DNA of 63,316 nt, filler included, from Reticulomyxa filosa (GCA_000512085.1; 15 parts of 15 records of this genome joined end to end with filler, not necessarily neighbours in it); one strand, 5' to 3'. Shown: positions 1,651 through 52,423, counted from the whole stretch's first letter. Program-made: numbers and translations. The notes: a model not told the origin generated them from the sequence alone.

Positions 1651-4218
1651 TTACCACCACTCCCACCAAAATTGTGGTGGTGTTGTTGCAGTATTTTCAT
1701 CTGCAGGCCTGTCGTGATGACGCAGAAGATCATTTGTTTGTTCAAAAGTACTATGCAAATCGGTTGTAATGTGCTTTTTTAGCTCTTCGAATCGTTTGTC
1801 AACTTTTTTCCATAACTCTTCTCCGTCAGTGATTTGAGGTTTGTTAGTGGAAATGGACAATGGTTGATCAAGCCGGCCGAACAATTGATCCGTTTTACTT
1901 TGCACAAGTTGTTTGATATTCATCAACTCCGCCAACACCTGTTTTGAAAAAGTGTCTGCGCTATTTACATCCTGCACTTTCTCTGCACTGCCATCATTTG
2001 CTTTTTCCTCTTGGTTCAATCTGTCATCGTCATCAAGATTCTCTTCGTCATCCTCGTCTTCGTCGTCCCCTGTATATACCTCGGTGGTCTTTAAGCGACT
2101 GTTCCTTGGTCGCGGGCTTGTCTTGTCGTTGTTCATCTTGACAAATAACGACTCTGAAATTTTCTTGGCCATTGTGCTTATAGCTTCGTCGTTCCAATTT
2201 GTCCATTTGTTGGTTTCTTATAGATATTTGTGCGACAATCGAGTTATATTCGAAGAAGAGAATAGTATATATACATATATATGCACATATATAAATATAT
2301 ATGTATATATATATAATGAAATAACCGAGTGGTTCGGTCTTTGCATAAATGTACCTTCTCTCGGAGAAGTTAAAGTCTTTGGAGTAGTGGGTACTTTGGA
2401 TTGAACGTTAGTGGTGCTCATCTGTCGAATAACGGATCTGTTGCGCTGTGTGGAATCGATGTCGAGCATGGTCTTTTGTTTTTTCATTCCGTTGTATACG
2501 TGATGGAGTCGCTCTCGATTGGATAATTCCGGAGTGCTGCAAGGCTTTGCTAATGAGCACAAAAGCGTCTCATTTTGCTGCAACTCTGCAAACGAGGTAC
2601 TGCCGCCCAGCGACTTTGTGTCGGGAGCACCGGCGCTATTGTTCTCTCTACTCTTCTTTAGCTCGCTTCCTAATGTCTCACTCGACAGCGTTAATTTCAC
2701 TGTCGCGAAACGAGTCAATTTACGATTGGGCTGTTGTTGTTGTTGCTGTTGCTGTTGAGTCTGTGGTGCATTCATCACTGTTCGAAACTTGAAATGCTGA
2801 GCTTCTTTCTTTTGCGATGGCGGCGATTGTGCAATCATTTCTTTTTTTTTTTTAACAATGATAACACATTCCATTATTTATTATTATGTGATATTTGTAC
2901 GCACATGCATGAACGCATGTGCGTGTGTATGTGTGAAGGACTCAAAAAAAAAAAAGACCATTGAGATATGGAGCAGGAGAACCAACAGATTGCGCATTGA
3001 CATTGTCCAATTGACCTCGTAGAGTCATGAGCTCACTCATATACGAGTGATTGGCTTCTTGTAGTATGGTAATCTCTTCGAATAGCTTTTTATTTTCATC
3101 GCGCAAGCTTTCAATCGTTTTGATTTGGGTCTGATTTTCCACCGAAAATCTGTTGTTTTCGCGGTTTAGTTTCAAAATCGTCGAATTTTGAGTGCGACTC
3201 GTTTCCACCAAATTGGATATCATTAGTTTTGCATCTGCTAGTTCTTGCATCAATTGCATCTCCATTTCGCCTTTGATTTCCTTACGTTTCAACGGAAAGT
3301 AGTTATTTTTTTTATTATTCACATGCATTCTCGCATTTGTATATTATATCATGTACATGCATATATATATATATGCATATATATCACGTGTGTATTACAA
3401 AAATACCGCATCGGATGTGAGTCGAGTCAAGTTATCAGTTTTTTCTTTATCTGATGTTTGCAGTTTTTCCACCCATTTGGTCAGTTCGTTGTTCTCTGCA
3501 CTCAAAGATTCCATTTCTTGTTTCGACTGCTCAAGTTCCATTTCCAGCTTTCTTTTTTCGTCCAACAACTTAGCATTTTCTCTTCGATACTCGTCGCATT
3601 GCCGCTCTGCTGGCTTGCCAAAGTCTTCAATCCATTGCTTCAATTGTTGAATTTCTTGATTCTTTATACCCATACACACATACATTTTATACTTATTCAT
3701 ACTTTTAAAAAATAATTATTAAAATTGCTTTTCATATCACTCAACACACATTCTCTCTTTTCATTGAATGAACACGCATAAATAAAAATAGACACAACTT
3801 TTCTAGTCATCATTTCTTGTGATTTCAATTCATTGTATTCCTGCTCTTCTTGCCATGCCGCGTCACCACCGTCTTGGGAATGTTCTACTTCTTCTCCAGC
3901 GACTCCTTCGTTGTTATGATGTTCTGCCGATTGTGCGAGTAAAAATTGAGTAAAAAAATCCGATTCCAATAACTCAGTATATTTTATTGCTCCCGATTTA
4001 TCCACATCAAAGGCATCAAACAACTTTTGCAATTGCTGTGGTGTTGATTCTGGCATCCACTCTTTCATTAACTTTTCAAACTCTTTCAAGTCTAACACCT
4101 TATCATGATTTGCGTCTGCTTCCTCGAACATTATCCGTAATTTTTCCAACAAATGCTCTGTATCATTTATATCCGCTATTGATTGGGGGATTGTAGTGTT
4201 CGATTCTTGTTCTGCCAT
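1651..4218 (-). CDS. EF-hand pair plus coiled-coil protein, ~5 exons (4218-3799, 3661-3407, 3280-2959, 2840-2355, 2216-1651)
   Basis: Two canonical EF loops (DANHDKVLDLKE, DVDKSGAIKYTE), then heptad-rich coiled coil, a poly-Q tract and an acidic tract. GT-AG introns join the ORFs in phase. The last junction and the 3' end are less certain. Confidence 0.8.
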
Positions 4219-4578
4219 CTTATCCTTAAAAGGTTTTTGAAATCTTTCCCTTTGAACACAAAAAGTTTCTGCAATTACACCACATAGACTGATATTACAA
4301 ACTATTCTTATTAGTACGTACGTTTTGTATCAGCTTTAATTTTTTGATTCTTAGGACAAGATAAGTGATGTTAAAAGCTACAAAATTCTAACTTACTGTA
4401 ATACAGTCATACACACATGTAATGGCTTTTTTTTAATCTGAAAACACGACACCGAATTTCTAACAGAACTACTATTATTGGTACAAACTTTAAACATTTC
4501 TTTAAAATCCAAAAAAAAAAGACAAGGACCCCATTACGCCTTTTTCTTTGTTATACTTTTAAACACAAATTCTTGAAA
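4219..4578. promoter_or_regulatory. Short divergent intergenic region (putative bidirectional promoter)
   Basis: Only 360 bp separate the head-to-head start codons at 4218 (-) and 4579 (+). No specific motif identified. Confidence 0.4.
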
Positions 4579-11954: not shown

Positions 11955-12960
11955 GTGGATTATTTGGTGATTCCAGTATTGGGATTACATTATTACAACA
12001 ACGGCAACGCAAACAGAGCAAAGAAAAGGAAACTGCCGGAAAATGATGATATTCCCGATATGAATGTCAAGAAGAGAAGGACTTCTCAAATGCAAGGACA
12101 AATCGCTGTGCGACTATGCTCATCATCCAAAACCTTGGTGATTACACCAATTCAAGCCAAAGAGCTTAAGTCAGCAACATCAGTACTTAAGCTTCTTGGC
12201 TTGAAGAATAAACATCAGCTCACACATTCTCTAGCAATCTAAGACCAGTCTATGTTCATTTTGCTGCGAATGTGAATGCCCAACACTTGCAACAGCTGTG
12301 TACGACATTCAACAGTAATCAACCTTCGTCGGATGGAGATGAGAAAGCCAAAGAACAATCCATTCGGCAACCGAAATGCCAAATTTATCAACGAGATTAT
12401 GTTGATGAAATCAAGAAAAGAAAAGAGCAGGAAGTATACAATCCCAACCTTGACAAGGTTGTATTATTGAAGAATGTTCCAGTTCTGGAATTGGAAGACT
12501 ATGGATATTCAGTTAATCAAGTAAAACGATTCAACAGAATGCCAATTGTTATGCTGAAAATGTGATGAAGATTTTGATGATAAGGAGATCCATGGCACAA
12601 GCTGCACTATATGATAAAAATAAGTCAAGGCCCAAGTACCATTTTAAGCAATGTCGAAATTATTACAAATTTAACCACATTGCAAAAGAATGTCCACAGA
12701 AAAGAAAGACGTGCAAGTATTGTGGATTGAAGAACCACGAAGCATCGAAATGTCGACACAAGAACGAACAAAGTCGACATCAATGTATATTGTGCAAGAA
12801 GAGTCGTCCAAGTGGTTCGGTGCAATGCGAAGTGATTCGCAAGGCAAGAGAAAAGATTGGAATTAAATTGACAAGGAAAGAAGGTGAATTCCTAATGAAA
12901 AAGGAATCACAAAGCATTCCAATTAAACACAATGTTCAGCATCAACCGAAACAATATTCA
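11955..12960 (+). mobile_element. Non-LTR retrotransposon ORF1 (gag-like zinc knuckles), degenerate
   Basis: Frameshifted ORFs ending in three CCHC-like knuckles: QCRNYYKFNHIAKEC, CKYCGLKNHEASKC and CILCKKSRPSGSVQC. Confidence 0.8.
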
Positions 12961-14240
12961 TCATTTACATCACTTGTAAATATTGATGTCCACAATGCCA
13001 CGTCATCAGCAAACATGCCACACTGAATAGGCTGATGAATCGCTGTCGGTAGGTCATTAATATACAATAGGAACAATATTGGGGATAAAGCAGATCCCAG
13101 TCAATCTCAATAACGATTGGAATCCTGCTTGTGTTTGATGTAATAATTGCTTATCATTCAACTATATGTAACCCATTCGAAAACTCCAAATAGGAATAAC
13201 AATGAATCAATCATTGCATTGCCACCATTCTTAAGCATTTGATTGTGGATGTTATCAGGACCCTGTGCTTTGTACGGCGATAGATGTCTCAGTGCCTCAA
13301 TAACTTCTTCCTTTGTAATGTCACTTTGATTGATATCAAAGGACCAAATACAACTTTCATCCAATTCCAATGGTTTAGATATCGCCACTTTAAATTTAAT
13401 ATCATTTCATAATGTTTCTCATCCACATCTTTTGGAGGCTATGCAAATGTCTTTGCCAACAGATATGCATCGTGTTCAATGCTTTGAATTGCGTAAATAA
13501 ATTCCTTGTATTCCCTTCATGCAATGAGTTAATGCTCTTTATCATATGTTGATGCTTTTCGAATAACAATTTCCTTCGTAATTGTTTCGAAATTTTCCTG
13601 TACAGCATCAAATTCCTTGGTGTCCTGCTTACGAAATCGGTTCTTTGATTTCTGAACTCTCTTTCGTAATCGAGATAAACTATCACTCCACCAAGGTTTA
13701 TTGCCTTTCCAAATCGTCTTAATACCCAATGGTTGCCTCTCCAGCATCAACAACACATTTGGTCCAAGATTCAACTGCTTTGTCCAATGATTCTGTGCTT
13801 CTCAATGCAATAGGGTCAATTGATTGCATCCAATTTCTTCTCAATCTAAATTGTTCCCATTTATTACTTCTCAGATTCCAAGTCTCGTTCAATTCGTGGT
13901 GATGACTACGTGATTTTGATATTGAACGTGATTGGGAGATGATCTGAGTGCACATGCAATTCAACATCATCCGCTCTCCAATTGCTAACAAATGGAAAAA
14001 AAGATGATGAACATAATGTAATGTCAATATTTGATGTTGCATTGTCCTTCATGAATGTGCAGTCAAATGGCAATGTGTTAATAATGTGTAGTCCATTGGA
14101 TATAATAAAATCGAGAATACATTCACCTACGTCGTCGGTATTTTAATCCAACCATACAGGGTTATGTGCAGTAATTTTCTGAGTTGATTGTAATTATTGC
14201 TTAAATGCGGTCGTATTGAATTGCTTACACTGCAGATTTC
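12961..14240 (-). mobile_element. Non-LTR retrotransposon ORF2 relic (APE endonuclease and reverse transcriptase), internally deleted and frameshifted
   Basis: Minus-strand fragments in order: AHNPVW..DDVGECILDFI..NATSNIDITL (endonuclease), KPWWSDSLSRLRK, ITKEEVIEALRHLSPYKAQGPDNIHNQMLK, QAGF, and GSALSPILFLLYINDL...MFADDVALW (RT motif FADD at 13002-13013). Confidence 0.88.
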
Positions 14241-14340
14241 NNNNNNNNNNNNNNNNNNNNNNNNNNNNNNNNNNNNNNNNNNNNTTAATTAATTAANNNN
14301 NNNNNNNNNNNNNNNNNNNNNNNNNNNNNNNNNNNNNNNN
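14241..14340. other. Artificial contig-joining spacer (N44-TTAATTAATTAA-N44); first of 14
   Basis: Identical 100-bp N-flanked linker with stops in all six frames. Others are at 23308-23407, 25978-26077, 27691-27790, 30030-30129, 33004-33103, 36143-36242, 41984-42083, 46409-46508, 47639-47738, 53119-53218, 54725-54824, 56439-56538 and 58173-58272. Confidence 0.98.
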
Positions 14341-14392
14341 TTTTTTTTTTTTTTTTTTATTTTATTTTTAAAAAAAAAAAAAAAATTAATAG

Positions 14393-17300
14393 CTACTTTG
14401 ACACTGCAATGGACAAACTTGAGTTGGTGTCGCCAGTAATGTATACGTTTTATTGCAGTCCTTATCACAAAAACACCGAAATACGAGCTCTGATTCGGGT
14501 GTCGGTGGATCGCAATGGCTGTCGTGTGGAGTTTCACGAGAAATTCGACGACAAACACAAGTCGACGACATTCCTGTGGGACCCATTGCTGGAATATCAG
14601 AAACAGAGGACGATCGACGTAAAGACACTTGAGCTGAAATTGTTGTGGCATTGGAAGACAGAGTTGCAAAAGTGGGTGCAACTTATCCCCGAATGGGACA
14701 GAAAAGAGGAGCTGTTGGCATCCCCACCCTCCATCCTTGGAAAATTGACAAGTAGTTTCAACAGCCTCCTAACTTCGGCGGCGACGAGCATTCGAAACAA
14801 GTTTTTTTCCAAAGGATCAACCAACTTTGACGCCACTGAAGACGTTGTCATGAGTGGGAACGTGATCACGGACAATTTGAAAATGGACAGTCGCGATCTC
14901 ACCATTACAGGTACTGGCAATGTCCAAGCGCAACATGGTAATATCAATTCTAGAGGCAATATTTATCAAAGTGGCTCGCTCATGCTTGCGTCGGGTGAAA
15001 TGAATGTGCAAGGAAGCCATCACTTGAATAAGTACACCATTAATTTTTTTTTTATTTTTATTTTTTTTAAAACACTTTTGATAAATAAAACAATACATAA
15101 AAAAAAATTTAAAATAGTGGAGCCAAATTGTTCTTGACTCGAACAAAGTACTCGGTCGGAAACAATATGAACATCCAAAGCGGCGCAGAGGCAACATTCG
15201 GTGAGGGATCCAGTGCAAAAATTGGAAACAATTTGTCCGTTGCCAATAGTGCCTCCATCAATTTTTTCGAAAGCTCCCTTAATGTGGGCAACAATGTCGA
15301 CGTGTTTGGTTCGCTGGGTTTGTTTGGAAGCAGCATGACTGCAACCAATATGAATGTTCACAAGTTTTGAAATCAAGGAGGAACAGGAAGGGAGGAAATT
15401 TTTTAGAGCCACTCTATTTTCCTCCCCCCTCTCCTTCTTATATACACATACGTATACAAATTTTTCTGTTTGTAAAGTGGTGGCAAAGCCAAACTGGAAA
15501 ACTCGAGTATGGAACTGCGAAATGACATGAAAGTGGATGGAACATTGGACGCGAAATACGCGAAAATAAACGTTGGCAACAACGCAACGATTTCGGGGAC
15601 AATGATAGCGGAAAACGTGGTTATGGACGTGAAGAACTCGTTTGCCATTTTGTCGAGTGGGATGTTGGATTCGAAAGGCAATACAAAGATTGAAAGCAAA
15701 AACATGACCCATTTGGGTACCATTCGTGCCGAAGGTGCACTCCAGTTGAAAGCAAAGGAGTCATTTTATTCGAGTTACAATAGTGTGTTGGAAGGAAGCA
15801 ATGCAATGATAAAGATCGAGGCCTCCACTGTCGATATGAATAGCTACGGTAACGTAAAGGATTTGCATCTGAAAGGAGATAATATCGTGGGCGTGGAAGA
15901 TATTTTGTATGGCACTGGCCATCGAGCAAGACTCCAAATCTCCAATAATCTCACTCTGGAAAAAAACGTCGGGTCATTCAACATCGATCGATCCCTCAGT
16001 CGCAGCTGCGGAATTAGCTTAATTGCGCCGATGATTGACGTCTCCAAAGACATGTACAGCTCAAAGAATATAATGCTGAAATCGACGAGTGGCAATATCA
16101 ACATTGTCGGAGCCAAGATTGATGGACAGAATACAATGCTGGACTCTGCGGGGTCGATTCGAGCAACTGGCTCCGAAGTCTGTGGAAGAGAGCATTTAGT
16201 GGTGAAGGCAGTCGGAGACATTGTCAACGAGTGCTACGAGGAGACATACCAAGGTCGTTATGACGAACAGAAAAGATGGAAAAAGGGCAAGTTCAGTGCA
16301 GGGAAAAGTATGAGTCTGGAAAGCACAGCAGGATCGATTATCAATGATGCCTCGGATTTGCAATGTGGAGGGGACATGCGAATCAAAGCCAAACGTGGAG
16401 TGGAATTTTTAGCACGTACACATACGTATGTGTCGGAACGCACCACTCACTCAACATACTTTTTGGGAATTGAGGTTAGCTCTACAACTACCGTGAAAAC
16501 CAAGACGAGCTCCGCCACGTGCGACGTATCTGCAGGCGGCAATTTGATAATCGAAACCGAAGGCGATTTCAAATCGATTGGGAGCACGTTTTATGCAGGG
16601 AAAGATCTGATGGCAGATATAAAAGGAGACGCCTTCCTTGCAGGCTCGTTTTGTCCGAGTCCACGTATACAAAGGACAGTTCGTGGTTTGGACTTTGTCA
16701 ATCATCATCGTACGATTACAGAGAACGTAATCAAGCCACCGTCGTCAAAGCCTCAATGGACACCATTTTCAAGTGCAAGAATTTAAAGGCAATTGGAGCT
16801 GAGTTTGAGTCGGGACGAAACTTTCAATTACAGGCTGAAAATGCAACTTTCGAAAAGCAAATACTGAACAATTACAGGTTTTTTTCCTAATAATAATAAT
16901 AATAATAATAATAATGATAATAATTAAAAATAAAAAAATAAAAAAATAGAGCCAATAGTTAAATTTTTTTGTTTGTTTGACTCCATTGACACAATAGTGA
17001 AACCAAAAGTTCTGGCCTATCGCTTTCAGCATCTGGCATCGGATACAATTACAACTCCACAAAGGCACGCTTTCAAACAGCCGGAAGTGGCAGTATAAAA
17101 GCAGGTAATGTCACATTGGATGTGAAAAACAAACTGAACATGCTGCAAGGCTTTGCCCCGGAAATAACGAGCCCGAACGGACTGCTGACGATCAAGGCTC
17201 GGGAGTTCACAATGACCGGTCTGAGATTGGAGTCAGAAGTCGAAAGCACGTCTGTGAGTGTGGGCGTGGGCATTAGTGCGAAAGGTGTGACTGGCTCTTT

Positions 17301-20300
17301 TTCTTGGTCCGAATCGAAAAGATCAGAGTCCAACGCCATCTACACCACGCTCAAGGCTCCGAACATGCATCTGGAAGTAGGGACTGCAAACATCGCTGGA
17401 GTAAACATACAAAGCAAGATTACAGGTCATGTACGCAACATGAACGTCACGGCCATGGAAAGTACTGTGACCGAGACGAGGAAAGGATTTGGAGTTTCGG
17501 CGACGCTTTCAAATGGAGTTCTCACCGGTGGCAGTGCCAATTTTGAAAACACAAAAGAACGCCATGTCACCGCCGAAAATGTCGGATTTATCGCGTTGGA
17601 AGGTAGTACTTTGAGCATTGACAATCTACATCTCACTTCGGTAAACGACAGCGGAGTGAAGGCCACCAATGTCACTCGAAGCGAAATTAAGGAAGTGCAC
17701 GATGTGCAAGGTGTGAAAATGGCTTTCAGTGCCAGTAAGGAGGGTGTTGGAGCCTCGGTGAGTGTGGATGGCAAAGAGCACGGATTTCAATACAGCAAAA
17801 ATGGAGCCAGTCTCACAATCGACGGCAAGAAAACAGGAATTGAAAAAACCGAAAATGGATTCAATGCGAACGTGCATGGCAATGAAGTTGGCGCAGAAAT
17901 GACTAAAGAAGGATTCAATGCAAAAGCAGGAGGTCAATCAATTGGCGCGCAATTCAATGCCACGGGATTTGCAGGCCATGTGAATGAACAAAAAGTCGGT
18001 GTGCAAGTGAATGATAAAGGATTCAAAGCAGAATTTGGAGAACATAGCTTTGACGCACAAATTAGCAAGAATGGAATTGAGGCTAATTTGGATGATCATC
18101 ATGTGGACATGCAAGTGAAAGACAATGGATTTGCTGCGCATTTGGACAAACACACCATCGATGCACAAGTGACAAATCAAGGCCTTTGTGCACATTTGGA
18201 TAAACACAATGTGGAATTGCAGCTGCATGACAATGGCCTTACTGCAAATGTCGATGGCCACAATATCGATACGCAAGTGACGAAAGACAAAGGTCTTACT
18301 GTGACATTGGATGCACACAAAGTACGTATTCCTCCCATTGCCAATGTCACTCAATTGCGAGACAAAGTCCGCACTGTCGAGAAATGGTTCCGAGTGCCGG
18401 AATTGGAAAATTTGGAGGACGCCATTCACACTGCGGAAAAAGCTGAGGACACTCTCAACTTGCTTTTCACAAAGCTGTCAAACGACAGCTGCTCACTCAG
18501 CAAACGTATTTGCAAGGAATGTCTGATCGAACCTTTGCGCGAGTCCACCAAAGTGACCTTGCCACAGCTGTTCATCAATCTCATTCACAAACTTTGTGTG
18601 GAACAAACATCGCAAATGAGCATTCAGGATTGGGCTCATCTGTTTGCAGACGACACACAAATTCCTTCGAAAAGTTGGATTGGCTCCATCGTCGAGCGCA
18701 ATCATCATGCCGTTCTTCAACACATTCGAACCTTGGTTATTTCTGAAATTGCTCCTTAGTTTGTTATTCTTTTTCATATTTTTTTTTTTTTAAATTATTT
18801 TGAAAAATTCAAAAAATCATATATATATATATGTATATATTAATTAAGTACATCTGCTGCAACGATATGGAAAATGGCGGAAACCACAATCAATGCGAAT
18901 GAGATAACAGAAGTGAAATGTGAATTTGCGTTCTCGGAACTTTCCAAGAACATTGAGAAAATTATAACTCTGGAGATTTTGGACAATTTGAAACACAATC
19001 GACCAATCAGTATGTCAATGCAACATGAAATGACATTGAAACTGGCAGCAATGTTGAACATGCGTACGCAATGGTTTGATACGAGTAACTTGGGCGAATG
19101 CTTTCCACATCTTTCAAAAATACAGCAAGTACTGCATTTGGATGTGAAGCAATATCCAATCCAATTGTTATCTGGAAGCAAGCCGTTATTAATTCGTAAT
19201 TTTGTGGAGTGTATCACTCCATTGTTACCCACTCGATTTCGAGATGTGGTCGAATGTGTGACCAAACAATGGTACTCAAAATCATCCCGTGGAAGTCCAA
19301 TCAATGCGACGCAAATGTTGGCACATGCCATTTGTGCCATCAAAGATGCAAGTCCACAAGTGTTGCGATGTTTGAAATGGATCGCAGTTGATAATTGCTC
19401 TCGATTGATCCCTTTGAATGACCAATTGCAAATTTTAAAAGCTGTTGCCCATTCTCCTACAAATGCAATGCAAAATAAAGAGTTTGATGTATTTATTGAG
19501 CTAATTGAAAAACTCTATTCTGATCAAGCTTTGGACAGCAAGCATTTGTGGTTTTTATTGGAAAAAGTGGGCTATGGTCAAGATTCGCTGGTGCAAAAGA
19601 TTTTGTGTTCCGGAACACATCCGGAACAACATGCGGAAGTCGTCAGGAACGGTGTCATGAACCATTTGAAAGAAGAGTTGCTTGATAAATGGACTGATGT
19701 GATTGAAAGGCATTGGGACAAACTAGCATTTAAACGTATGACAGGGGAGTTGTTGGGAATGATATTAGATAAGAATACTGTGCAGTTGTGGCAGCAATTG
19801 CATTCCGGTAAGAAATGCACAATTGATAATGTCCATCAAGTGATTGAGTTGATATCGCCTCCAGAATTTAAACGTGCATTGCATTGTTTGAAACACATAC
19901 AAGCAAATGAAGATGCAAGAGTGGTTGTAAAAGATTTGTTGAATGAACATGTAAATCAAGGACTGCCATCTGATATGATAGCTCTGTTTTGTGGGGAAAA
20001 TGAAAGCAATTCATCCCAAATGAATTGGAAGCGAGTATTGAAATCGATTTTTGATTACTATTGCAAGCGTGGATTGCTTGAGGAACAATTGTGTCAATGG
20101 TGCATTGCCACGTTCTGTGAAGAAGGTAGTGATTCAACTGACTCCAAAAAAGATAAAGAGCCACTGACTCCAATCTTATTACAGCTGATTTGTAAACACT
20201 TCCCTGTCCAGTCACACCGCATCGTAAATGCCGTATTTGGCAATGATGAAACAAAACAAAACAAAGATGACAATATATCAATGTCAAAGTATGTACTGGA

Positions 20301-23300
20301 ATTGGCTGGCATAATGCCAAACGAAATTTCCAAATTGTTAGAAGTGTATCTTACAACACTGTGCAATAAGCCATCCGAAACGCAACGTAAAGAAAACAGA
20401 GTCAGTTTGATGAAGCAATTTTTGGAGCAAGTCATAGGTAAGGATAAGTCTGTTGCAATATTGACGACATTGAAGGACGAACAACAATTGAGAAAGCATA
20501 TTTTGGAAATGGTGAAGAAAGAACATCCATTGGTAGCAAGTTACTTGAATGAATTATGGAAATGCAACTCCAATCTGAATTCCAGTGTTTCAAAAATCGA
20601 TCAAATGTGGCAGACTACTGTAGAAAAATATTGTCTCGAAAACGTTTCCAAGAAACTTCCAACCAAATTGTTTGACGATCATATTGACTTGTTATCCGAG
20701 TGTCGCAGGTTGTTAAGTGACAGTAACATGCCCGAAGGTCTATCCAAACGTTTAAGTGAAACACTTTGTCCAAGTACGACTGCAAAGTATTCCAACATCG
20801 AAGCCTTGTGGGGATTCTTTGTGAAGGAAAAGATTCAAAGCAATCGCTTGAGCAAGTTTTTGCTGTATACGTTGACTCAAGAACCTGCAAAAGCAATGGA
20901 CACAGAGCAAAAGAATACGTTGATGTTTTGTGGAATACATGACATTGACAACAGTCTTACTAGAAATGTACTGTCAATCATTTGGAAATTGCATACCAAA
21001 TATCAAGACCATGACAATCCATTGACTTGGATGCCACTATTGGAAACCCTACTGGCAAAAGCTTATTCCCTTTCTTCTCCATCTTGCACCGCTGTTGCAC
21101 GTATCCTTTTGCAATTTCACACTCCAACTCTTTTATCGCAGCTCAAAGACTTGTGCAAAAGTTTTTTTTTTTTTTTTGGTTTCGATTACAAAAAATATCT
21201 TTAATTACTATTTTTTTTTTTTTTTTTTTTTTGAATGATAGCAATAAAAGATAATTCTGGCAACAACCCCACCACTAATTCAATTTTGGAAGTATTGTTG
21301 AAGAATCTGAATGGCAAACAACCAAAGATGCCTTCATTAGAGGAATTGTGGAAAGTAAGTATAAACAAAATGGAGTCTTGGCCAAGTGCAATTCGGAGTG
21401 TGATGCTCAAATCGACAACCAAGCCCAAATGGACGGTAGAGATATTTTTGGAGTGCTTGCCAAGAGAATGGAAGTCGTCGGAATTGGCGAGTCATATTGG
21501 CAACTGTTTGTCGCTGCAGACAGACCTTGCCATTAAAAAGAAGTACTTACGAGAAATGATTACACATTTGTCTGACAAATACTTGAAACAGTACAGCTCC
21601 GATAAAGAGGCAGAGGCATTGAGGAAGACTGTCGAAAGCAAAGATATTTCCAATGCATTGGACAAGAGCGAGCAGATGCAAATGAGTATTGTGCAGCAAT
21701 GGTTGGACGACTGTTTGCAATTTATGAAAAAAAGCATTGCAAAAATGGACAAAAAGAGCAAAGAGATGAACGTGGAGATCAAAAAATTACAAAATGATTG
21801 TAAATTATTGGAACGCTTTCTACCACTTATCAAAGATCAAATCAAATGTGGCAGTGGTCAAACTCACATGAAATCAGTGTTGGCATGCAATTTGTGGTAT
21901 TGCACATTTTTATTATTGCCAAATGTAAGTCATGAAATGTCATCATTGATGTCAACCTATGTTGCAAATGAAAGCGATGAAAAAGGAAAGGAAGAGAAAA
22001 GAGAGGAAGAGAAGGATGTAAATGAACAGCTTGTATTGTGTTATTTACAAAATTGCTGTGGCCTTTCATCCACTGTTTGTGATTTGATTATACGTTGTGT
22101 CAATGGCGAGACTGCTTGGAATTTATTATGGACGGAGTTATCTTTGTGTCCAGACTTTTCAATTGATGCTAAATGGAAGAACTTGGCACGAGTAAATGCC
22201 AGGAAAACTATCGACACTTTACGTGAAATGATTGAACATAGCTTGCCATTGCCAGAAGATATACGTCGGATATTAGTCAAACATTGGAGTCCATCTTCAC
22301 CACCGAATTTGAAGCAAATATGTCAATCGATTTTGAATGACCGTAAAGACGAATGGAAAGAGGATAAATGTTTATTGTATTTGATGAATCCAAATACCAC
22401 CTTTCCGCAAGAAGAAGTGTTAAGTAATGTGTCACAGTCATTGAATTGGACACCGGCTGTAACTACAATAGTTAAATGTTTCCTTAACGACTCTGTTCCA
22501 AACGCAAAGCAATATGGCCAATGGCTCGAAGAAATGTTTGTCACTTTGGCTCAACACTGGTCGCTCCAAAGTGACAAGTACCCCAATATGCCCACTTTGG
22601 CAAAGACTCTGGTGTCTTTGGATTGTGGCGACGACAAAAACGGAGTGAGTCTGTTTTGTCACCTGTTGCAACAGCATGGTTTGGAGCCATCTTTGGCATT
22701 TGTATTGAAGCATCGATTACTGCATGGCAATTATGTCGATTGCAGCCCAGTTTGGCTGAAAAACTTTGCTGATTTCATTGCAAATGGTAATAGACCTGAT
22801 AATGATGCAATGGATACCGTGACATATTTACGTAGTGGTTATTTCTTGTGTGAAAAAGAAATGGAAGTGATTCTCGCATTGATGGAGGAAAAATGTAAAC
22901 TTATTAACAAGGCCTCTTTTTCTGAAAGCTGCAGTTCATTTTATGGCCAATTTGTAGATACAGAGGATATCACGTTTGATGATTGGTTGGATTGGATTGT
23001 CACCGAGTGGCTCCCAATGATGTCCATAGATAACAAATACCTCCAAATTGTGCAAAATTATTATGGACGAAGCAATGACAAAGAATGCAAGACAGACAAG
23101 TTATTATTTGGCGTTGGATTACAGATGACAGTGAGTGCATTGTCTGCAGTAATTCCAAAAGCCAGTACTTTCATTGCCACTTGTTTGGCTATCAAAGGTG
23201 GCTCTGCGGACAGCATTGCAGTGTGCAATTCGCTATTGCCTATCTCACTTTCCCCTTTCATCACTCGTCTATTGCAACAGATTGAAACACCTTTGAATCC

Positions 23301-23307
23301 TTCCAAT
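14393..23307 (+). CDS. Giant (>2,800 aa, partial at both ends) filamentous-haemagglutinin/CdiA-like beta-helix protein with 18-aa repeats and a long helical region. Exons 14393-15031, 15118-15363, 15478-16877, 16998-18758, 18849-21160, 21242(or 21251)-23307; one 1-nt frameshift at ~16644
   Basis: Five GT-AG introns join the ORFs with matching phases. Haemagglutinin-repeat-like segments include AGKSMSLESTAGSIINDASDLQCGGDMRIKAKRGVEF, VSAGGNLIIETEGDFKSIGSTFYAGKDL and SVSVGVGISAKGVTGSFSWSESKRSES. No start or stop codon lies within the contig. Confidence 0.8.
17803..18324 (+). repeat. ~10 tandem 18-aa (54-nt) coding repeats, consensus G(F/L)xAx(V/L)DxHx(I/V)xxQ(V/I)xxN
   Basis: GASLTIDGKKTGIEKTEN / GFNANVHGNEVGAEMTKE / GFNAKAGGQSIGAQFNAT / GFAGHVNEQKVGVQVNDK / GFKAEFGEHSFDAQISKN / GIEANLDDHHVDMQVKDN / GFAAHLDKHTIDAQVTNQ / GLCAHLDKHNVELQLHDN / GLTANVDGHNIDTQVTKDK / GLTVTLDAHKV. 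Confidence 0.9.
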
Positions 23308-23649
23308 NNNNNNNNNNNNNNNNNNNNNNNNNNNNNNNNNNNNNNNNNNNNTTAATTAATTAANNNNNNNNNNNNNNNNNNNNNNNNNNNNNNNNNNNNN
23401 NNNNNNNTGATCAATTATTAAAAAGAGTTCATCTGACGAAAGCAACTATCAGATGATATCACAATTAATCAATGTTATTTTTAAAATCAATTCATTTGTA
23501 TCCATACTTAAAATGTATAAAATAAATTTTCAATTGTTGGTGAAATAATGTTAATTGATTGGACATATATATCGAAAATATCTTTTAATTATAAAAAAAA
23601 ACGTCGTGACAAAGTCTTTGAACTGTCTCAGCAACTTCCATACAGTAAA

Positions 23650-29501: not shown

Positions 29502-30029
29502 TTATCCCCAAATACAAATGGGACCTTTGGCTGAACCATAGCATAAGTTTAAGTCATACATATTATCATTCTCTTTCTTTTTTAATTTAATAAATTTAAG
29601 ACATAATATTCCACCATCTGTTTTATCATCTCCTTTCATAGCATATAATTCATTTTTATTTGATCGAACATCCCAAAAACGAATAGTATTATCTCTTGAT
29701 CCAGAGCATATCACATTACAGCCAGTAATTTTATTAGTATTCTTTACCATGAATGGTAAATAATCAACAGCACATATAATATCTGTATGTCCATGAAAAA
29801 TTTGTATTTGTTTATCAGATCGAATATCCCATAAACGAAGAGTTTTATCTTGTGATCCAGATAAGACTGTATTTAATAATGATCCATTTGGTCCATATTT
29901 TACACTCATTAATTTATGTTCATGTCCTTTAAAAAGATTAAGTTGTTTAGTTGTTTCAATATCCCATATTCGAATAGTTTTATCCCATGATCCAGAACAA
30001 ACAGTATATCCATTTCCACCAATAATGCC
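29502..30029 (-). CDS. WD40-repeat protein of the expanded lineage-specific family, 5' partial
   Basis: The frame is open from the gap: IIGGNGYTVCSGSWDKTIRIWDIETTKQ..KGHEHKLMSVKYG..LSGSQDKTLRLWDIRS..ICSGSRDNTIRFWDVRS..LCYGSAKGPICIWG*. Confidence 0.88.
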   Translation of the reverse strand, partial: GIIGGNGYTVCSGSWDKTIRIWDIETTKQLNLFKGHEHKLMSVKYGPNGSLLNTVLSGSQDKTLRLWDIRSDKQIQIFHGHTDIICAVDYLPFMVKNTNKITGCNVICSGSRDNTIRFWDVRSNKNELYAMKGDDKTDGGILCLKFIKLKKKENDNMYDLNLCYGSAKGPICIWG

Positions 30030-30692: not shown

Positions 30693-33003
30693 TCAGAAAG
30701 GAGAAATATTTGACAAGAATGTCCAGAGCCATGAAGAGGTGGGCCGTTCGTCTTTTTTTTTCCATTCCTGATATGCACAGTGATATGCAGCCGCACAGGA
30801 ACTCCACTCTAAATGTTCATGGGGGAAGTGAGACAGGTCATTGTCGCGAAGGCATTGACGTAAGAGAAAGGCGAGTTGAAACTCTTGAGCGCAGGGCAGA
30901 TTTCGTTGAACTTGTCCTAGTTTGTATGCAATCTCACGCCAAACCCTTAGTATATCTTTCATGGTGGTCAATGGAGTTTTTTTGACAAACGCTTTGATTT
31001 GCTGTTGAAGTTCGTTTGATAACGGATATCGATATATTTCAAGGACAAATGGAGTAACGGAGCTCTCATCCAGGCGTTCGATGCGCATCAAGTTATTCAA
31101 AAAGTGCCACAACGCAGCGATATGTTTGATGCAGAGGACATTTTTTGTGTCTTTGGTATGGGTTTGAAAGTCAAACAGACTCCAATCTTTCTTTTCAAAG
31201 TGCATATGTTGGAGCAAGTTGATCAAAGGTGTGTCGAAGCGGAGTTGGTCGGGGTTGTTGGACAAGAAGACGACAATATCGTTGAGTGCCTCCAAGCCTT
31301 TCTGTTTTTGTAAGGAAGAGGCGGTGTACAAGCGAGTGTGTTCCCAAAGCAACTCGATCTGAGCTGTTTGCGAATCCTGGTGCTGAGTCTCGATGGTGGC
31401 AATGCTATTGTGGATGTCCAAGTCGTTGCGATATTGAAATAGAGGGACTCCAAGAGCCAGAGGTCTCCGACCGTGCACAAAGGTGTGATAAATGTCATTT
31501 TCAATGGACGCGAAATCAAAATATTTTGATTCGCTGTTGATGACACCGTACTCGAGTACTGGAGCACTGTGTCGTCGAATGATTTCATTTAGTTTATTCT
31601 TATCAAAGCACAGCACGTCATTCGAGGTGATATCAAACAGCCATTTGTAAATGACCTGATCATTGTCATGCAATATTATCTCTCTTTCCCCTTTATTGTC
31701 ATCATCATTATCATTTTTATTATTATCATCATCATCTTTTTTGTGTTCATGTACAGACAGTCGCTTTAAACGACAAAGGGTATGCAAAAAGCGATTGTGT
31801 TCGTCTTGCAAAAGTCGGATGATTTTGTAAATACTGAATCGCGCCCGTGCGGTCTTGGCGTTGACCACGACTACGCGTTCAATTGGTATGAGCATCTTTT
31901 CGGCTTGGAGTTGTTGATAATGTGACGCAAAGTGATTCCAGCACATCACAAGATCGCTCCACCAGGAATAGCACTCACGCTTTTGCTTCACTATATCTTT
32001 GATATGCACGTCGTACAGTTGTTCGGGCAGCAGCTGTTGCGAGTATTCGTCATGCACGTGTTTCAACAACTTGGCAATGCTGGGCAAGTACTGCACGGCC
32101 CAAGCGCCTTCGTTGCAAGCGAGCAGCTGTGACGTCAATGGGTACTGCGCACACAGCTCGGAGTCGTGGCTGAATGCGCGGCTCAAGTCATTCCACGACA
32201 GCACTTGCACTGCCAAAAACAACTGTGGCGCATAGCTTATTTGGTATGAGTCTGTCAGCTCTTTCTTCTCTTCGATTTCGCTCATCAACTCGCCGAACGC
32301 TGTCGATGTCTGTCGCTTCCCTGCGTCTTCGCCTGCGTTTCGATACTTGATAAACTTATCTTTGTCATTAAAAAACGTGCGGTATTCGCAGTCCAGCTTC
32401 TCTTCAAACTCGTACATATCCTTCAGAGTCTTGTAGCTCGAGCCATGCGGATACCATTTTGCAAACTTTTCTGAAAAGTCTTTCATCCAAAAATGCAGAG
32501 CCACTTCCAACAGCTCTTCGTTCAGACCGGTCAGCTGTTCTAACTGCCTCCAGTTAGTCTTCACTTGCCACCATAACATGTCGCCCACGCTCTTGCATTT
32601 CAACAGCTGCAGCAGCTTTGCACTATCCTGTGGGATGCACTCGTCTCTCAGTAGCAATGGCAGATGGTATAGCAAGCGTAACAACAGCCACGTTAATGGA
32701 CTCACTGTCTCTGGCTCTGTTCTTTTCGGCGACGTATAATATCTCTCCAGCACGAACCAAATGCTTTTCGACTCTTCTCCCACTTTGGACGGCGTTTTTG
32801 ACGAAAAGGAGGAGGAGGGGATGCACAATTTGGCTCCGCATCCGTCCATTTGACAGGTTGCCTCTTTGCACAAAGATAGAGGCGCATCTTCGAGTAATAA
32901 TGGGTGTCTGTTTGCACAATAATATGGTATAGGCTCTTTCGTAGGTGACGACGACGACAAGGCATCCTGCGACAAGAACAACTCCGAGTCCTCAAATAGC
33001 AAT
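30693..33003 (-). CDS. RNF213: RNF213 (mysterin)-like E3 ligase C-terminal region (RZ-finger-like motif and C-terminal domain), 5' partial, no introns
   Basis: Motifs are colinear with the RNF213 C-terminus: YYCANRHP..C..C..CGAKL, VSPLTWLLLRLLYHLPLLL, WRQLEQLTG, VQYLPSIAKL, IIRLLQDEHNRFL, YFDFASIENDIYHTFVHGRRPL, LCIKHIAALWHFL. The ORF is 769 aa. Confidence 0.8.
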
Positions 33004-33103
33004 NNNNNNNNNNNNNNNNNNNNNNNNNNNNNNNNNNNNNNNNNNNNTTAATTAATTAANNNNNNNNNNNNNNNNNNNNNNNNNNNNNNNNNNNNNNNNN
33101 NNN

Positions 33104-33775
33104 AATAATAATAATAATAATAATAATAATAACGATAATGGTAATAACAATACTAATACTGGCTCAATAAATGTGAACACGAATGCGAATGTCAATGATG
33201 AAGAGAATCCAGCGGTACCGATGGACGATGGGTTCGTTCGGCCAAAAGAGAAAAAAAGCAAAGGGAAATACGACGAAACTCGATTGCAGCCAATGTCGTA
33301 TTCCTCAGCGATCTCTTCATTTGCAATGAAACATGGCCCGAATGGCGAGCGACAAAGACGAATCCGCGCTACGACGTTGCCATCAACTCAGCAAGCGAAG
33401 TTATCAATACACGCAATTGGGAAGCAACGCCAACCCCAACATTAGACACTGTCGAATCCAACGGAAGACGTTGAGTTTATCCGCTCCTCCGGTTTGCGCC
33501 AGTATGGATGTGGCCATCGGGGTGGACAGTGACGCCAAAATGGAACAAGTCCGATTGGATGACTCATCGAATCACATCCATTCCATAACCGTTTCCCAAC
33601 AAAACTCCCTCATTAATGCTTGTGCACAACAATCTGCGGTTGTCAGTCATGATCCGTTATCATTATCATTGTCATTGTCATTTCCAGTGCCAGTCCTTTG
33701 TCTTCTTTTGAAAAAGATCAAAACATTGATTCATCCTGCAACAATCCAAAAGTTATGTATATACATATATGAACA

Positions 33776-33810
<35 letters not shown>

Positions 33811-35337
33811 GTATATGTTAATAAAAATCTGAACAAATTGAAAAAGAATAAAGTTTCCAGTGTTCCATCGATGAGAGTGCGACTTCGAAAGAGCCGTGGA
33901 AATGGTTACAAGTTTCTGTCTTTGGAGGAATCGCATTTGCAAGAAATGACCACAGGCTTGCCATTGACAACGAGCGAAGTGAGAACGACACAGAGCGCCG
34001 AATTCGGCAGTAAAGGGACTTCGAGAGAATCACTAAAAAAGACCCCCAAATTCTCTGGAATAACAACGACAACTCTAACGAACGCAACGGTGATTGGCAT
34101 ATCAACACAATCGAAATGCGCAATGGACGCGCCTTGCACGGACGCGAACGCATCGGAAATGAAAGAGGTGACCACCCCTGAGCCTTGCGTATCTTCTTCT
34201 TCTTCTTCTCGGCGACAAAGAGCAAGTCGCCGTCGTTCATTCGCCACTCACAAAGTCCTCTCCGAAGCGCAGCAAGATTGCAAGCCTCGCGTGGAGGCAG
34301 CCTATGAAGCCGAAGAAATTGTTGAGACTGACACCACAGCCCTCGTCACAAAACAACAAGGACGACCACGTAGGCGCGTAAGCGGCAAAGGAACGAGTAG
34401 TCAAGAGATTGGTAGCGGGCGTGGTGACGACACTCGTGGCCGAGGAAGAGAAGGAGAAAGGGAAAGGGAAAGCATTAGTCAAGGACAAACACCACCCAAT
34501 GGACGCATTACCAAAGTGTCAATCGTGACAACGGCAAGTAAAAACAAACGAGGTCGAAAAGTTACCAAGAGGGGCCAAAAAACCTCTGAGGAGGACGACA
34601 TCACTGAGAGAGTGATCAATCTTGCTCCGCCGACCAAACGGAGACGACTAAGTAGCAATGCGTCACAACCAATCACAAACGACCAATTGACGAAGTGCAC
34701 GTTGCCTGCGAAAATCTGCGTGAGACGATCTACCAAAACGGGACACGACACGATTCAATCGCAACCGATCAAGCATTCCCGTCGCCATCGTGGTCGAAAG
34801 GCCGACAACAACGAAATCATCTATGCGATGATTGCTCTTGGTCCTTTGACTCGACGTGCCAAAAAACAAATGCTACGTCAGGCCACTGCCTTGCAGAAAA
34901 CTATTCCAGCTGATATTCAGGCTCAATGTGACCGTCATGATGATGATGACGATGATGATGATGTTGATAATGATGATGATGATGATGATGTTGATGTTGA
35001 TAATGATGTTGATGATGTTGATGATGATGATATTGATGTTGATGACGATAGTGATGATATTACCACCAATCGTAGCGACGACGGCAAAACCAACAATCAA
35101 AAAACACACAAACGACGTGCATCACGGAAGAGACATCCCACAACGAAATCAAAAACCACACAGAAACAATCATCGTCCATCCGTGGAAAACACACGAAAA
35201 GGTCCAATCCCAATCATCCTGCTTCCTCCTTCCCAAGTACTGGCATGCAAGACACTCCAAACTCGGCGGATAACAGCCTCTCGAATTCTTTGCGAAGGAG
35301 TACGCGTCTTGCTGCGCAAAAAAAAAAACCACATTAA
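33104..35337 (+). CDS. Low-complexity, intrinsically disordered basic/acidic protein, 5' partial; probable frameshift at 33333-33445 and intron ~33752-33860
   Basis: Poly-N start, a long R/K/S/T-rich terminal exon, an Asp-rich tract, NLS-like PPTKRRR and a C-terminal LRRSTRLAAQKKK. Confidence 0.55.
34939..35058 (+). repeat. Imperfect (GAT)n coding microsatellite (poly-Asp)
   Basis: About 40 codons, mostly GAT, interrupted by GTT/AAT/ATT. Confidence 0.9.
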
Positions 35338-49936: not shown

Positions 49937-52423
49937 TTAGTGATGAAGATTATTAAGAACTCCAATTGCTTTAATTACAAATGAAGGAGAGTATATTAAT
50001 AGTTGAAATTTAAAATTTGTAGCATTCTCAAAAAAATAAACAAGCGTCCTAACATAATAGGGGAAAAAATAATAAAAAAAGAAGTCGTAATGATAGTGAT
50101 ATAATAAACCAAAAACAAAATGCTTAAGTAGCTCTGTTTTTTTTTCTTTTAAAGTTAAATATTTCTTAAGCCCAGCTTGAAATTTGAGAGTACAATTGCA
50201 ACACTGAACAAATTCCAAAAAACACTGCCAGAATGAGTGTAACCCACCTTTCAACAACGGAGGTCTGATCTGTCCTCCAAACCACCATAGCAGGGAATAT
50301 GTAGCAACCTGTCCACACAAAGATAGAATAATAATCAACACTGTTTCTTCCAAAAAAAAAAAAAAAGGAAGAGACAAATAAACACTCTTAACAAATGGGC
50401 AAGGAAGTCGATCCCATCAAAGCGTTGACTTGGCCCACGTTAGTAGCAACAAGAGCAATAGCAGCTGCGGACAGCACAAAAGACAAAGTGACAATAACGT
50501 GTTGTCTTTCGGGCAATTGAAAGGATATATTGGCAAGATAGCTTCGTTGAGTCGGATTGGAGCTCAAAGGAGCAACACTCGCTACTGCTGCTGGAGGCGG
50601 GCACTCGTCGTTTTGATCCTCCAGCATTTGTTTTTTTTCTTCAGCATCGCCCTCCATTTTTGAAGAGGGAGATGGCGAGGGTGAGTCATGTCTAGAGTGT
50701 CGGAGTTTAATGATTTTGGGCGCTCCATTGGCAGCTGTGGCGGTATTAGTGGTAGTAATGGTTGTCGCTGTTGTTGTTATAGTGGCTGTGACATTGTTGT
50801 CTGAGCTGGACACAGATGTGGTGTTATCGAGCGTGTTGCTGACTATTTTGGAAGGATCCGTTTTCGTATTAATTGCTGCATTGTCCTGGCGAGAAATGTT
50901 ACTCATTTCAATTCTCTTCGTTGTTTTTTCCAAAGTACCTTTAGTTTGTTCCATCGATGAATTGATCGGTATTGACTCTTTATCAATTTCTTGATAGCTC
51001 TTTCGCACCTCTGCCGGGACATTCAATGATCTCAGCGACCTCTATATTCTCTCCAAAAAAAAAAACAAACAAAATGCAAAAAGCTATAAACGAAGGGGAA
51101 GGAGGGGAGAGAGAGAGAGAGAGAGGAAAGGATCAAACACTTGATAGATATAACAAAACAAAACTGCTCGGGCAGTGGACAGCAGTAATTCGGCCAAGGA
51201 CTTTCGAAAGGCATGGGCGAACAACGGGACGTCGCTGATGACATAGATGGAGAGCAAAATCTGTGCTGCCAACATAGACTTGTTCTTATTATAGGCGGAC
51301 GACAACAAGTTGGGCTGGACATTGTCAGGAAATGTAAAGTATCCAAAGTACGCCATGGCCGTATACACCACCAACGAAAATGCAAAACTGAACCACATGC
51401 CTGTCTTCAAGCGGCTCAGAGTGCGGTCTTTCATTTCAAAATAAATCGGCAAAAACGTTGGTTGCGCTGCAAATGCACCACTCATCAACACTATTGTATA
51501 CGTATGCTTTTTTTTATTTTTATTTTATTTATTATTTATTTTTTTTTTTTTTCACCATTTTTTTTTTTTTTTTTTAACAAAAAAAAAAGTATTTATGTGC
51601 ACCCCTCCCCCTTTTCTTTTTTTCGCTTCTGCGAAACTTGCATAAAATCGGGAGTGGAAAATCTCAAATGTGCTACACTTTGTTGGAAACAGCGACGACC
51701 CGAATCAACGTCAGGAGTGTGGCACCAGTCAAAAAAAATGCCCACCACGACCCCGACGGTATAAATCACGATCAACAAGCCCAAGAGAGAATTGTAGCGA
51801 AGTTCGCTCATGCGACGGAACAAAGACAATGGCAAGACAATCACGACGACACACAAAGGTAGTAATATGTACTCGCTATCCCATATGCTGTTGCTATGCC
51901 CGACTAGGGTCCGTATTGCCGGAATCAGCAAAGTCTTCACCAATGTCATATAAGACACACACGCGCTCCATAACAACACGATCAATGCACATTGAATTCC
52001 TACCGCCGTTCGGTCACCCCAAAGCTTCTCAGCTAACCGTCGAAAGCTACGACAATTATTCAATTCGCAACATTTGGCAAGCATTAGCATTGTATATGCA
52101 CAGCTCCAACAGCCCAACAACAAGTAAAATAAACCCGTAATTGTTCCACATTTTCTATTTGTATTTTTTTTTTTTTTTTTGTTCCAATTTGGGAGGGATT
52201 AATGTACGAATTTGTTTAAAAAAATTTGCTGACATTCTTTAGCCCCTTTGCTTCTTTTTGTTTTTTCTTCTAGCTCTCACTTGACGGCAAAAGATAAAGT
52301 CAATGTCCCTGGTCCGATCATGCAACAAACAAGTTCAAACGTGGTTGCCGCTATCGACCCGGGTTCCATATTGAAATCCTTCACATTTTCTCTGATTTTT
52401 GTCCAAATGTTAGTGGACGTCAT
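49937..52423 (-). CDS. Amino acid transporter, Aa_trans/AAAP (SLC38-like) family, multi-exon
   Basis: GSIAATTFELVCCMIGPGTLTLSFAV, SFRRLAEKLWG, LPLSLFRRMSELRYNSLLG, AFAAQPTFLPIYFEMKDRT, FGYFTFPDNVQPNLL, VNALMGSTSLPIC; multiple transmembrane segments. Confidence 0.9.

Follow-up and report, generated by a model that had tools for sequence, protein, structure and literature searches.

The classical type Vb exoproteins (FhaB, HMW1, EtpA and CdiA) are built on a right-handed beta-helix of Fil_haemagg_2 and 20-residue FHA-type repeats, a long rod that is followed by a different C-terminal module. Here a gene of the foraminifer Reticulomyxa filosa is described that shares this general build. In the initial annotation it had been read as a eukaryotic, intron-containing descendant of such a bacterial exoprotein (TpsA), possibly acting as an adhesin or as a carrier of a contact-dependent toxin. 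It is the sole gene present on the contig 14341-23307, which is part of a stretch of 63,316 bases that is called the window throughout.

Hemagglutinin-like modular toxins that lack CdiB and carry exchangeable C-terminal modules have been described for Rickettsiales endosymbionts (Verhoeve et al., mBio 2024, PMC11077975). As far as the covered part of that paper goes, these toxins are a precedent for haemagglutinin-type giants without a two-partner transporter in bacteria that are obligately intracellular in protists and arthropods. In contrast to the R. filosa gene, they are bacterial and combine nuclease or peptidase warheads with antidotes; the two were likened by description, not by sequence. 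A eukaryotic copy is not described in the same part of the paper. In the literature that was covered, which did not include the R. filosa genome paper, where the family may be mentioned, no FHA-type beta-helix of ~900 residues with introns and a eukaryote-specific fusion was found.

Bacterial genes in protist genomes are a known phenomenon. The results presented below indicate that the R. filosa gene is likely a horizontally acquired, intron-invaded chimeric gene. On balance, it is probable that it is an intron-split eukaryotic gene with a rod (amino acids (aa) ~136-1040) that is an FHA-type beta-helix and was transferred from a family of giant proteins, which lack the two-partner secretion (TPS) domain and occur mainly in Legionellales-type bacteria.

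Structure of the gene and of its product

The plus strand from 14409 to 23307 contains six open blocks. The five stretches between them are short, with 86, 114, 120, 90, and 81 nucleotides (nt), and AT-rich. The GC content of these stretches was 0.10-0.37, compared to 0.39-0.46 for the open blocks. All five stretches have GT...AG ends, and their removal keeps one frame, with the phases 2, 2, 2, 2, and 1. The upstream reading frame hits a stop codon inside each of the five introns, and therefore a continuous protein requires splicing. Once a frame break of a single base is bridged, the spliced product consists of 2,803 codons and is free of stops.

The exon joins (15031/15118, 15363/15478, 16877/16998, 18758/18849, and 21160/21242) were compared with relatives, and a junction was taken to be supported by a homologous domain that spans the site with a length difference of not more than 2 residues. 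At the junction of intron 1 this was true for 4/5 spanning domains, at that of intron 2 for 9/10, and at that of intron 3 for 8/8. At the second junction the R. filosa protein RFI_24394 (P0001) reads NIHN-GGKGK and the window NVHN/GGKAK (slash: junction), and P0001 ends precisely at the end of exon 3. Junctions 1-3 are crossed without interruption by P0001 as well as by the intronless giant open reading frames (ORFs) of bacteria that are treated below. For intron 4, the matching part of a second R. filosa protein, RFI_13376 (P0002), starts at the border of exon 5. The splice signals, the phases and the collinear intronless relatives thus agree with the six exons, the five phase-matched introns and the protist origin that had been annotated, and the locus is best described as a predicted eukaryotic protein-coding gene with spliceosomal-type GT-AG introns. 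As side observations, the four phase-2 introns share the context A/GT...AG/T, and the lengths of four of the five introns (114, 120, 90, and 81) are divisible by three.

Exon 3 is not a single open frame, which had been overlooked in the initial annotation, so that the more than 2,800 aa given there were confirmed only with this break bridged. A shift of one base occurs near 16644/16645, and one base appears to be missing there because all homologous domains extending across this position (41/41) are collinear. This would be either a draft-assembly error or a genuine mutation in the gene. A mini-intron at the site was also considered and was rejected, as no plausible GT...AG pair was present and the relatives are collinear. 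The shift raises the question whether the studied copy is a pseudogene, i.e., a decaying, non-functional relic. This is quite unlikely: a single break was found in a coding sequence of 8.4 kb, the 2,803 codons are otherwise free of stops, and canonical ends have been kept in all five introns. Moreover, a base of a short run may be lost in a fragmented draft assembly, and the diverged copies in R. filosa indicate that the family has been retained overall. Among the sequencing runs that contain the sequence no RNA run was listed, which speaks neither for nor against a pseudogene; just two DNA entries, labelled "synthetic metagenome", contained 9% of the words, and they are unlikely to be independent of the assembly.

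The 3′-end of the gene is cut, because the contig terminates in frame at 23307. A candidate start codon (ATG) is situated at 14409, and the 68 bases of the contig upstream of it contain no stop in its frame. A relative, P0006, begins with M at about residue 57 of the model. Hence, the statement that neither end was present stood for the 3′-end, while the 5′-end may be included in the contig. An AG acceptor at 14391-14392 offers the alternative that exon 1 is internal and that an upstream exon exists.

The predicted protein can be divided into four parts (Table 1). The third part, a series of short repeats, connects the beta-helix to the helical module; it is not a tandem repeat at the DNA level and did not match any family. 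A hydrophobic window was not found in the N-terminal part, and the pair of stretches in exon 6 contains the sole hydrophobic windows in the 2,803 aa. This pair lies about 40 residues from the contig end and could be a membrane hairpin or buried helices. The GC content at third codon positions was 0.51 in the rod and 0.42 in the helical part, while ORFs on the other contigs ranged from 0.13 to 0.49; the difference between rod and helical part is uninformative on the origin.

Table 1. Coordinates of the gene, its predicted protein parts, the contig and further features (positions refer to the window, except for the bacterial loci).
Feature	Position	Strand	Remarks
Exon 1	14409..15031	+	N-terminal part of ~135 aa without family match and start of beta-helix
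Intron 1	15032..15117	+	GT...AG, 86 nt, GC 0.12, phase 2
Exon 2 (beta-helix)	15118..15363	+	
Intron 2	15364..15477	+	GT...AG, 114 nt, GC 0.37, phase 2
Exon 3 (beta-helix)	15478..16877	+	Fil_haemagg_2 and TIGR01731 matches
Intron 3	16878..16997	+	GT...AG, 120 nt, GC 0.16, phase 2
Exon 4	16998..18758	+	end of beta-helix (to ~17847), 18-residue repeats (17848-18345), start of helical module (18346)
Intron 4	18759..18848	+	GT...AG, 90 nt, GC 0.10, phase 2
Exon 5 (all-helical module)	18849..21160	+	single relative, R. filosa RFI_13376
Intron 5	21161..21241	+	GT...AG, 81 nt, GC 0.14, phase 1; basis: splice signals and frame only
Exon 6 (helical module, continued)	21242..23307	+	open at contig end
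N-terminal part, aa 1-135	14409-14813	+	no family match, not hydrophobic
Beta-rich rod, aa ~136-1040	14814-17847	+	37% G+S+T+N
About nine 18-residue repeats, aa 1041-1206	17848-18345	+	type Q-h-x-x-x-G-F-x-A-x-h
All-helical module, aa 1207-2803	18346-23307	+	at least 1,600 aa
Pair of hydrophobic stretches, aa 2735-2765	23101-23193	+	in exon 6
Stretch collinear with giant TPS-less bacterial proteins, aa ~145-1122	14841..18093	+	introns included; residues ~1100-2500 in the hits
One-base frame break (GCAGG^CTCG)	16641..16648	+	one base short compared to the frame of relatives
Stand-alone contig, 8,967 bases	14341..23307	.	bounded by two artificial linkers
Linker sites	14241-14340, 23308-23407		flank the studied contig; 12 more in the window
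Linker cores	14285, 23352, 26022, 27735, 30074, 33048, 36187, 42028, 46453, 47683, 53163, 54769, 56483, 58217		
EF-hand pair	3697-4326	-	other contig
WD40 repeats	29502-30029	-	other contig
Aa_trans amino-acid transporter	51593-52195	-	other contig
Giant bacterial beta-helix loci	L010:5208-14264; L011:2814-11801; L001:81-6011		proteins P0005-P0087 in same family

The rod, its bacterial relatives and two-partner secretion

Exon 3 matched the Pfam family Fil_haemagg_2 with an E-value of 1.7e-13 and 51.5 bits (cut-off 22), with the best stretch at 16055-16174. In addition, it matched the NCBIfam family TIGR01731, the 20-residue FHA repeat, with an E-value of 1.4e-6 at 16286-16390. An AlphaFold2 model of the region 15479-16645, which was based on a 22-row alignment, consisted of strands throughout and had a mean local confidence (pLDDT) of 96.9 and a global score (predicted template modeling, pTM) of 0.91. 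The rod is thus predicted to be a right-handed beta-helix. The model was compared with 48,161 chains using VIA-align. Among the secretion domains of TpsA proteins, EtpA had a Z-score of 19.5 (root-mean-square deviation 4.4, 239 residues aligned), HMW1 of 19.4, HxuA of 16.7, and FHA of 14.4. A cyanophage tailspike (Z 19.6) tied with EtpA and HMW1, and autotransporters ranked after them. By itself, the match of the modelled structure does not single out a TpsA.

A Foldseek search of the PDB with the same model yielded nothing at E≤1e-3, and the weak rows all were beta-helices or solenoids. Thus, the structural analysis proposed in the initial annotation resulted in a confident beta-helix model, but not in a Foldseek match. 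The other statements about the rod were borne out: the region rich in G, S, T, and N exists, the three quoted peptides are all found in the spliced product, the repeats are of the haemagglutinin type, and the beta-helix is of a bacterial kind. Several searches were negative, i.e., sequence searches of the PDB with exon 3, exon 4, exon 6, and the A2 profile, a comparison of exon 3 with proteins of 682-2,000 aa (E≤0.001), a scan of genome contigs with P0011 alone as query, and scans of metagenome contigs and of viral contigs with the alignments A4 and A3.

Relatives were retrieved with exon 3 from 1.84 billion protein representatives, and 86 hits were obtained at E≤1e-3. The majority of the hits are proteins of 2,000-3,200 aa, which are collinear with the model over about 900 residues (the respective parts are listed in Table 1) and have identities of 22-31%. 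Their own matches to Fil_haemagg_2 are weak. Of the long hits, 64 have an initial M; only one of these had a hydrophobic stretch in the first ~70 residues, and this was not signal-peptide-like. The ends of the proteins are variable. Pfam domains above the cut-off were Lipase_3 at the C-terminus of five relatives (P0036, P0038, P0043, P0056, and P0060), an OTU protease in P0013, and N-terminal ankyrin repeats in P0063, while Scabin-like ADP-ribosyltransferase, TPR, and ankyrin matches stayed below the threshold. The few named members stem from metagenome-assembled genomes (MAGs) of Legionellales, Thiotrichales, and Gammaproteobacteria, e.g., MCX7118016.1 (Legionellales) and PCI38783.1 (Thiotrichales). 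P0085, a weak hit from Limnohabitans, is a partial sequence annotated as "hemagglutinin repeat-containing protein".

A search of Legionellales genomes that started from a MAG locus led to matches at E≤1e-5 in 25 of 204 scored genomes, and two further genomes were not scored. Each match is a single ORF of 551-3,152 aa without internal stops. In an even sample of the class only 6 of 401 genomes matched, including the starting genome, and all six have sizes of 1.6-2.8 Mb. By this count, the family of giants without a TPS domain is enriched in Legionellales (25/204 vs. 6/401). At one of the loci, L010, a TPR protein of 583 aa directly follows the giant ORF. A description of such a family in Legionellales was not found in the literature covered, including the covered part of PMC3482391. 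Apparently, giant beta-helix proteins with exchangeable ends and without TPS domain and signal peptide are an undescribed family of Legionellales and other Gammaproteobacteria with small genomes.

The TPS domain (PF05860) was detected neither in the seven ORF pieces at E≤1 nor in the first 135 aa at E≤0.01. PT-VENN or a toxin family was not found in the 2,803 aa that are present, the C-terminus being situated beyond the contig end. A Pfam scan of the 86 database relatives revealed the TPS domain in none of them. As a positive control three classical TpsA genes from plasmids of Pantoea, Rhizobium, and Pannonibacter were used. All three contain the TPS domain, with 168-174 bits, and all three loci include an adjacent ShlB/FhaC (TpsB) gene. 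When the controls were compared with aa 290-1000 of the model by phmmer, no match was found, while the TPS-less giants score 87-127 bits on this scale. Because the TPS domain is absent from the gene and its relatives, and the classical TpsA proteins do not match, the source family would therefore be a different, TPS-less class. A TpsB-like neighbour was also missing at the two full Legionellales loci that contain an ORF of about 3,000 aa. A search for the TPS family in five Legionellales genomes was negative (0/5), but the control genomes were silent as well, and hence this result is uninformative.

The initial annotation had explained the gene as a domesticated classical TpsA of the FhaB/CdiA type, an exported adhesin or carrier of a contact-dependent toxin, in which case the TPS domain and the toxin would be encoded on the missing ends. 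Both repeat families are indeed present, the rod model does match TpsA secretion domains (Z 19.4-19.5), the protein is incomplete at its C-terminus, and the enzymes at the C-termini of the bacterial relatives vary in the manner of polymorphic toxins. On the other hand, TPS, PT-VENN, and toxin domains are all absent from the 2,803 aa, the helix is preceded by 135 aa that are not hydrophobic and not a TPS domain, and the M-start of P0006 is at about the same place. The TPS domain is present in 0/86 relatives compared to 3/3 controls, and no sequence similarity between the controls and the window was detected. A eukaryote is not known to have an outer membrane in which a TpsB partner could act. 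The TpsA reading is thus very unlikely, and on the evidence available the protein does not appear to be a TpsA.

The differences to the two groups of bacterial proteins can be summarized as follows. In contrast to the classical exoproteins, a Sec signal was not seen in the 2,803 aa that are present, the Fil_haemagg_2 match of 51.5 bits is much weaker than that of the controls (174-241 bits), the gene is split by introns, and the toxin end is replaced by a helical module, which comprises 1,600 aa or more. The giant Legionellales-type proteins share with the R. filosa protein the collinear homology over ~900 residues and the lack of a TPS domain; a signal peptide was not seen in the giants either. 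They differ in that their ORFs are uninterrupted and have about 1,100 more residues of helix at the N-terminal side, while the R. filosa gene has five introns and only about 135 aa in front of the shared part. Ankyrin repeats at the N-terminus and a lipase or OTU domain at the C-terminus are seen in some of them, none of which occurs in the R. filosa protein, whereas the 18-residue repeats, the N-terminal part and the helical module are found in the latter only.

Relatives in R. filosa and the origin of the rod

The close relatives of the gene are two hypothetical proteins of R. filosa and three further fragments. RFI_24394 has an identity of 62-63% over exons 2-3 and a precomputed PF13332 match, and RFI_13376 has an identity of 44-50% over exon 5. 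Both are partial, are encoded on contigs of 2.4-2.6 kb and have no described function, and their matching parts start or stop at exon borders of the window gene. The three fragments are on contigs of 0.6-2 kb and have identities of 33-56%.

Relatives of the helical module outside of R. filosa were not found by sequence, metagenome-contig, viral-contig, or PDB searches. A profile of exon 5 retrieved from the PDB only acetyl-CoA carboxylase rows at chance level (E 0.04-0.4). An AlphaFold2 model of exon 5 with its single relative contained helices only and had a pLDDT of 38.4, so that the fold is unreliable. Searches of the ESM Atlas with exons 5 and 6 led to nothing more specific than generic families of large alpha-solenoids (0.88-0.91), and the recognition scores (1424 and 1602) were below the useful range. 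The putative module of at least 1,600 aa is lineage-specific and has no bacterial counterpart in these searches, and the annotated fusion of the rod to a large helical module is consistent with this.

As the frame upstream of the ATG has no stop on the contig and an AG acceptor is located at 14391-14392, there is also room for a signal peptide on a missing 5′-exon. In that case the protein would be a surface or secreted adhesin that uses the eukaryotic secretory pathway and exposes its rod on the reticulopodia for the capture of prey or substrate. Beta-helices of this sort are typical of surface adhesins (EtpA, HMW1, autotransporters), and a membrane anchor could be provided by the hydrophobic pair at aa 2735-2765. 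However, a signal peptide was seen neither in the window nor in P0006, the closest bacterial family has none, and the helical module weakly resembles intracellular alpha-solenoids, albeit with recognition scores below the useful range. An exported adhesin is therefore considered unlikely.

A phylogenetic tree was calculated from 63 rows of a query-anchored alignment with a quick maximum-likelihood search (LG+G4), and branches were evaluated only with the Shimodaira-Hasegawa-like approximate likelihood ratio test (SH-aLRT). Six rows with a coverage below 35% were left out (P0004, P0022, P0035, P0057, P0067, and P0074). The window gene, P0001, P0003, P0006, and the long-branched P0085 were found on one side of a branch with an SH-aLRT of 99, and all 58 TPS-less bacterial rows were on the other side. 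By similarity, the protist clade is the nearest neighbour of the TPS-less bacterial family. It is not nested in this family, and therefore the donor lineage and the direction of the transfer can be inferred only. Rooting with classical TpsA proteins was impossible, because they cannot be aligned by sequence; of the phylogeny with bacterial TpsA proteins that had been proposed, a tree with the bacterial relatives was thus obtained.

The position of the protist clade outside of the bacterial clade would also fit a reverse or independent origin, i.e., Legionellales-type bacteria obtained the rod from protists, or both received it from an unsampled third source. Effectors of Legionellales often have eukaryote-like parts, and P0063 carries ankyrin repeats. 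Against this, the Fil_haemagg_2 repeat family is bacterial, the ORFs of the bacteria are single and intronless and occur in 25/204 Legionellales genomes and in other Gammaproteobacteria, and the eukaryotic side is limited to R. filosa proteins plus three fragments. Such an origin is highly improbable.

The favoured explanation is a transfer of the rod from a bacterium to the protist, with bacteria that live inside protists as the donors. Of the bacterial rod, only the ~900 residues in the middle would have been retained, while the N-terminal extension of ~1,100 residues and the variable enzymatic C-terminus would have been lost. The gene would have acquired its introns, ~135 aa at the N-terminus, the series of about nine repeats of 18 residues each, and the lineage-specific helical module, which comprises 1,600 aa or more, and at least two diverged copies would exist in R. 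filosa. Because neither a signal peptide nor a TPS domain was seen in the part that is present, the protein is probably not exported by a two-partner system. It could be a stiff intracellular rod with a length of ~15-20 nm, which serves as a spacer of constant length between the helical, protein-binding module and the partner of the N-terminal part, and it might thus be a scaffold or a tether. The length assumes a rise of ~4.8 Å per coil.

Several points weigh against this explanation. The protist clade is outside of the bacterial family and groups with the classical-looking P0085, and the R. filosa proteins are just 44-63% identical to the window gene. An upstream 5′-exon off the contig may exist, possibly with a signal peptide, and the C-terminus beyond the contig could encode an enzymatic or toxin domain. 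In view of its frame break, the studied copy may be a pseudogene. Finally, the putative role as a scaffold or tether is deduced from the architecture, and a usable fold of the helical module was not obtained (pLDDT 38).

It is tempting to speculate further, although the complete scenario has to be regarded as doubtful. The foraminifer might have taken the rod from a giant effector of Legionellales-like bacteria living in its own cells, added introns and a helical module of 1,600 residues, and kept several diverged copies. This piece of a pathogen's or symbiont's weapon, domesticated by the host, might now work inside the host cell, where it could be a tether in the reticulopodial transport system or, as a decoy or guard, protect the cell from the bacterial proteins it descends from. 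The scenario would also bring to light an undescribed, polymorphic family of haemagglutinin-type effectors without a TPS domain across Legionellales.

Neighbouring contigs and implications

The window consists of 15 contigs of 1.1-14.2 kb, which are chained by linkers of the form N...TTAATTAATTAA...N. The six-frame stop linker TTAATTAATTAA occurs 14 times within N runs, compared to 0.07 occurrences expected by chance. The contigs are artificially chained, and therefore the flanks of 14341-23307 are not its genomic context; findings that span or lean on neighbouring contigs of the window are unsafe. A paralogue of the gene was not found on the other 14 contigs. The preceding, unrelated contig has an ORF at 12517-13026 (plus strand) with a C-X2-C-X4-H-X4-C motif that by eye resembles a zinc knuckle, and broken ORFs on the opposite strand at 13158-14048 (minus strand). 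This suggests a decayed retroelement; neither region had a Pfam match at E≤0.01. Pieces of EF-hand, WD40, and Aa_trans genes on other contigs are consistent with a eukaryotic source of the record. Two further contigs (GC ~0.41) contain long open frames of 784 aa (30693-33047, minus strand) and 535 aa (33730-35337, plus strand), which have no Pfam match and no similarity to the studied gene.

Taken together, the question of the source shifts from two-partner secretion to a family of giants that lack the TPS domain and the signal peptide and are concentrated in bacteria inside protists. If the transfer is confirmed, it would link foraminifera to Legionellales-like intracellular bacteria, and the R. 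filosa gene would be a natural experiment on the action of the rod apart from its bacterial ends.

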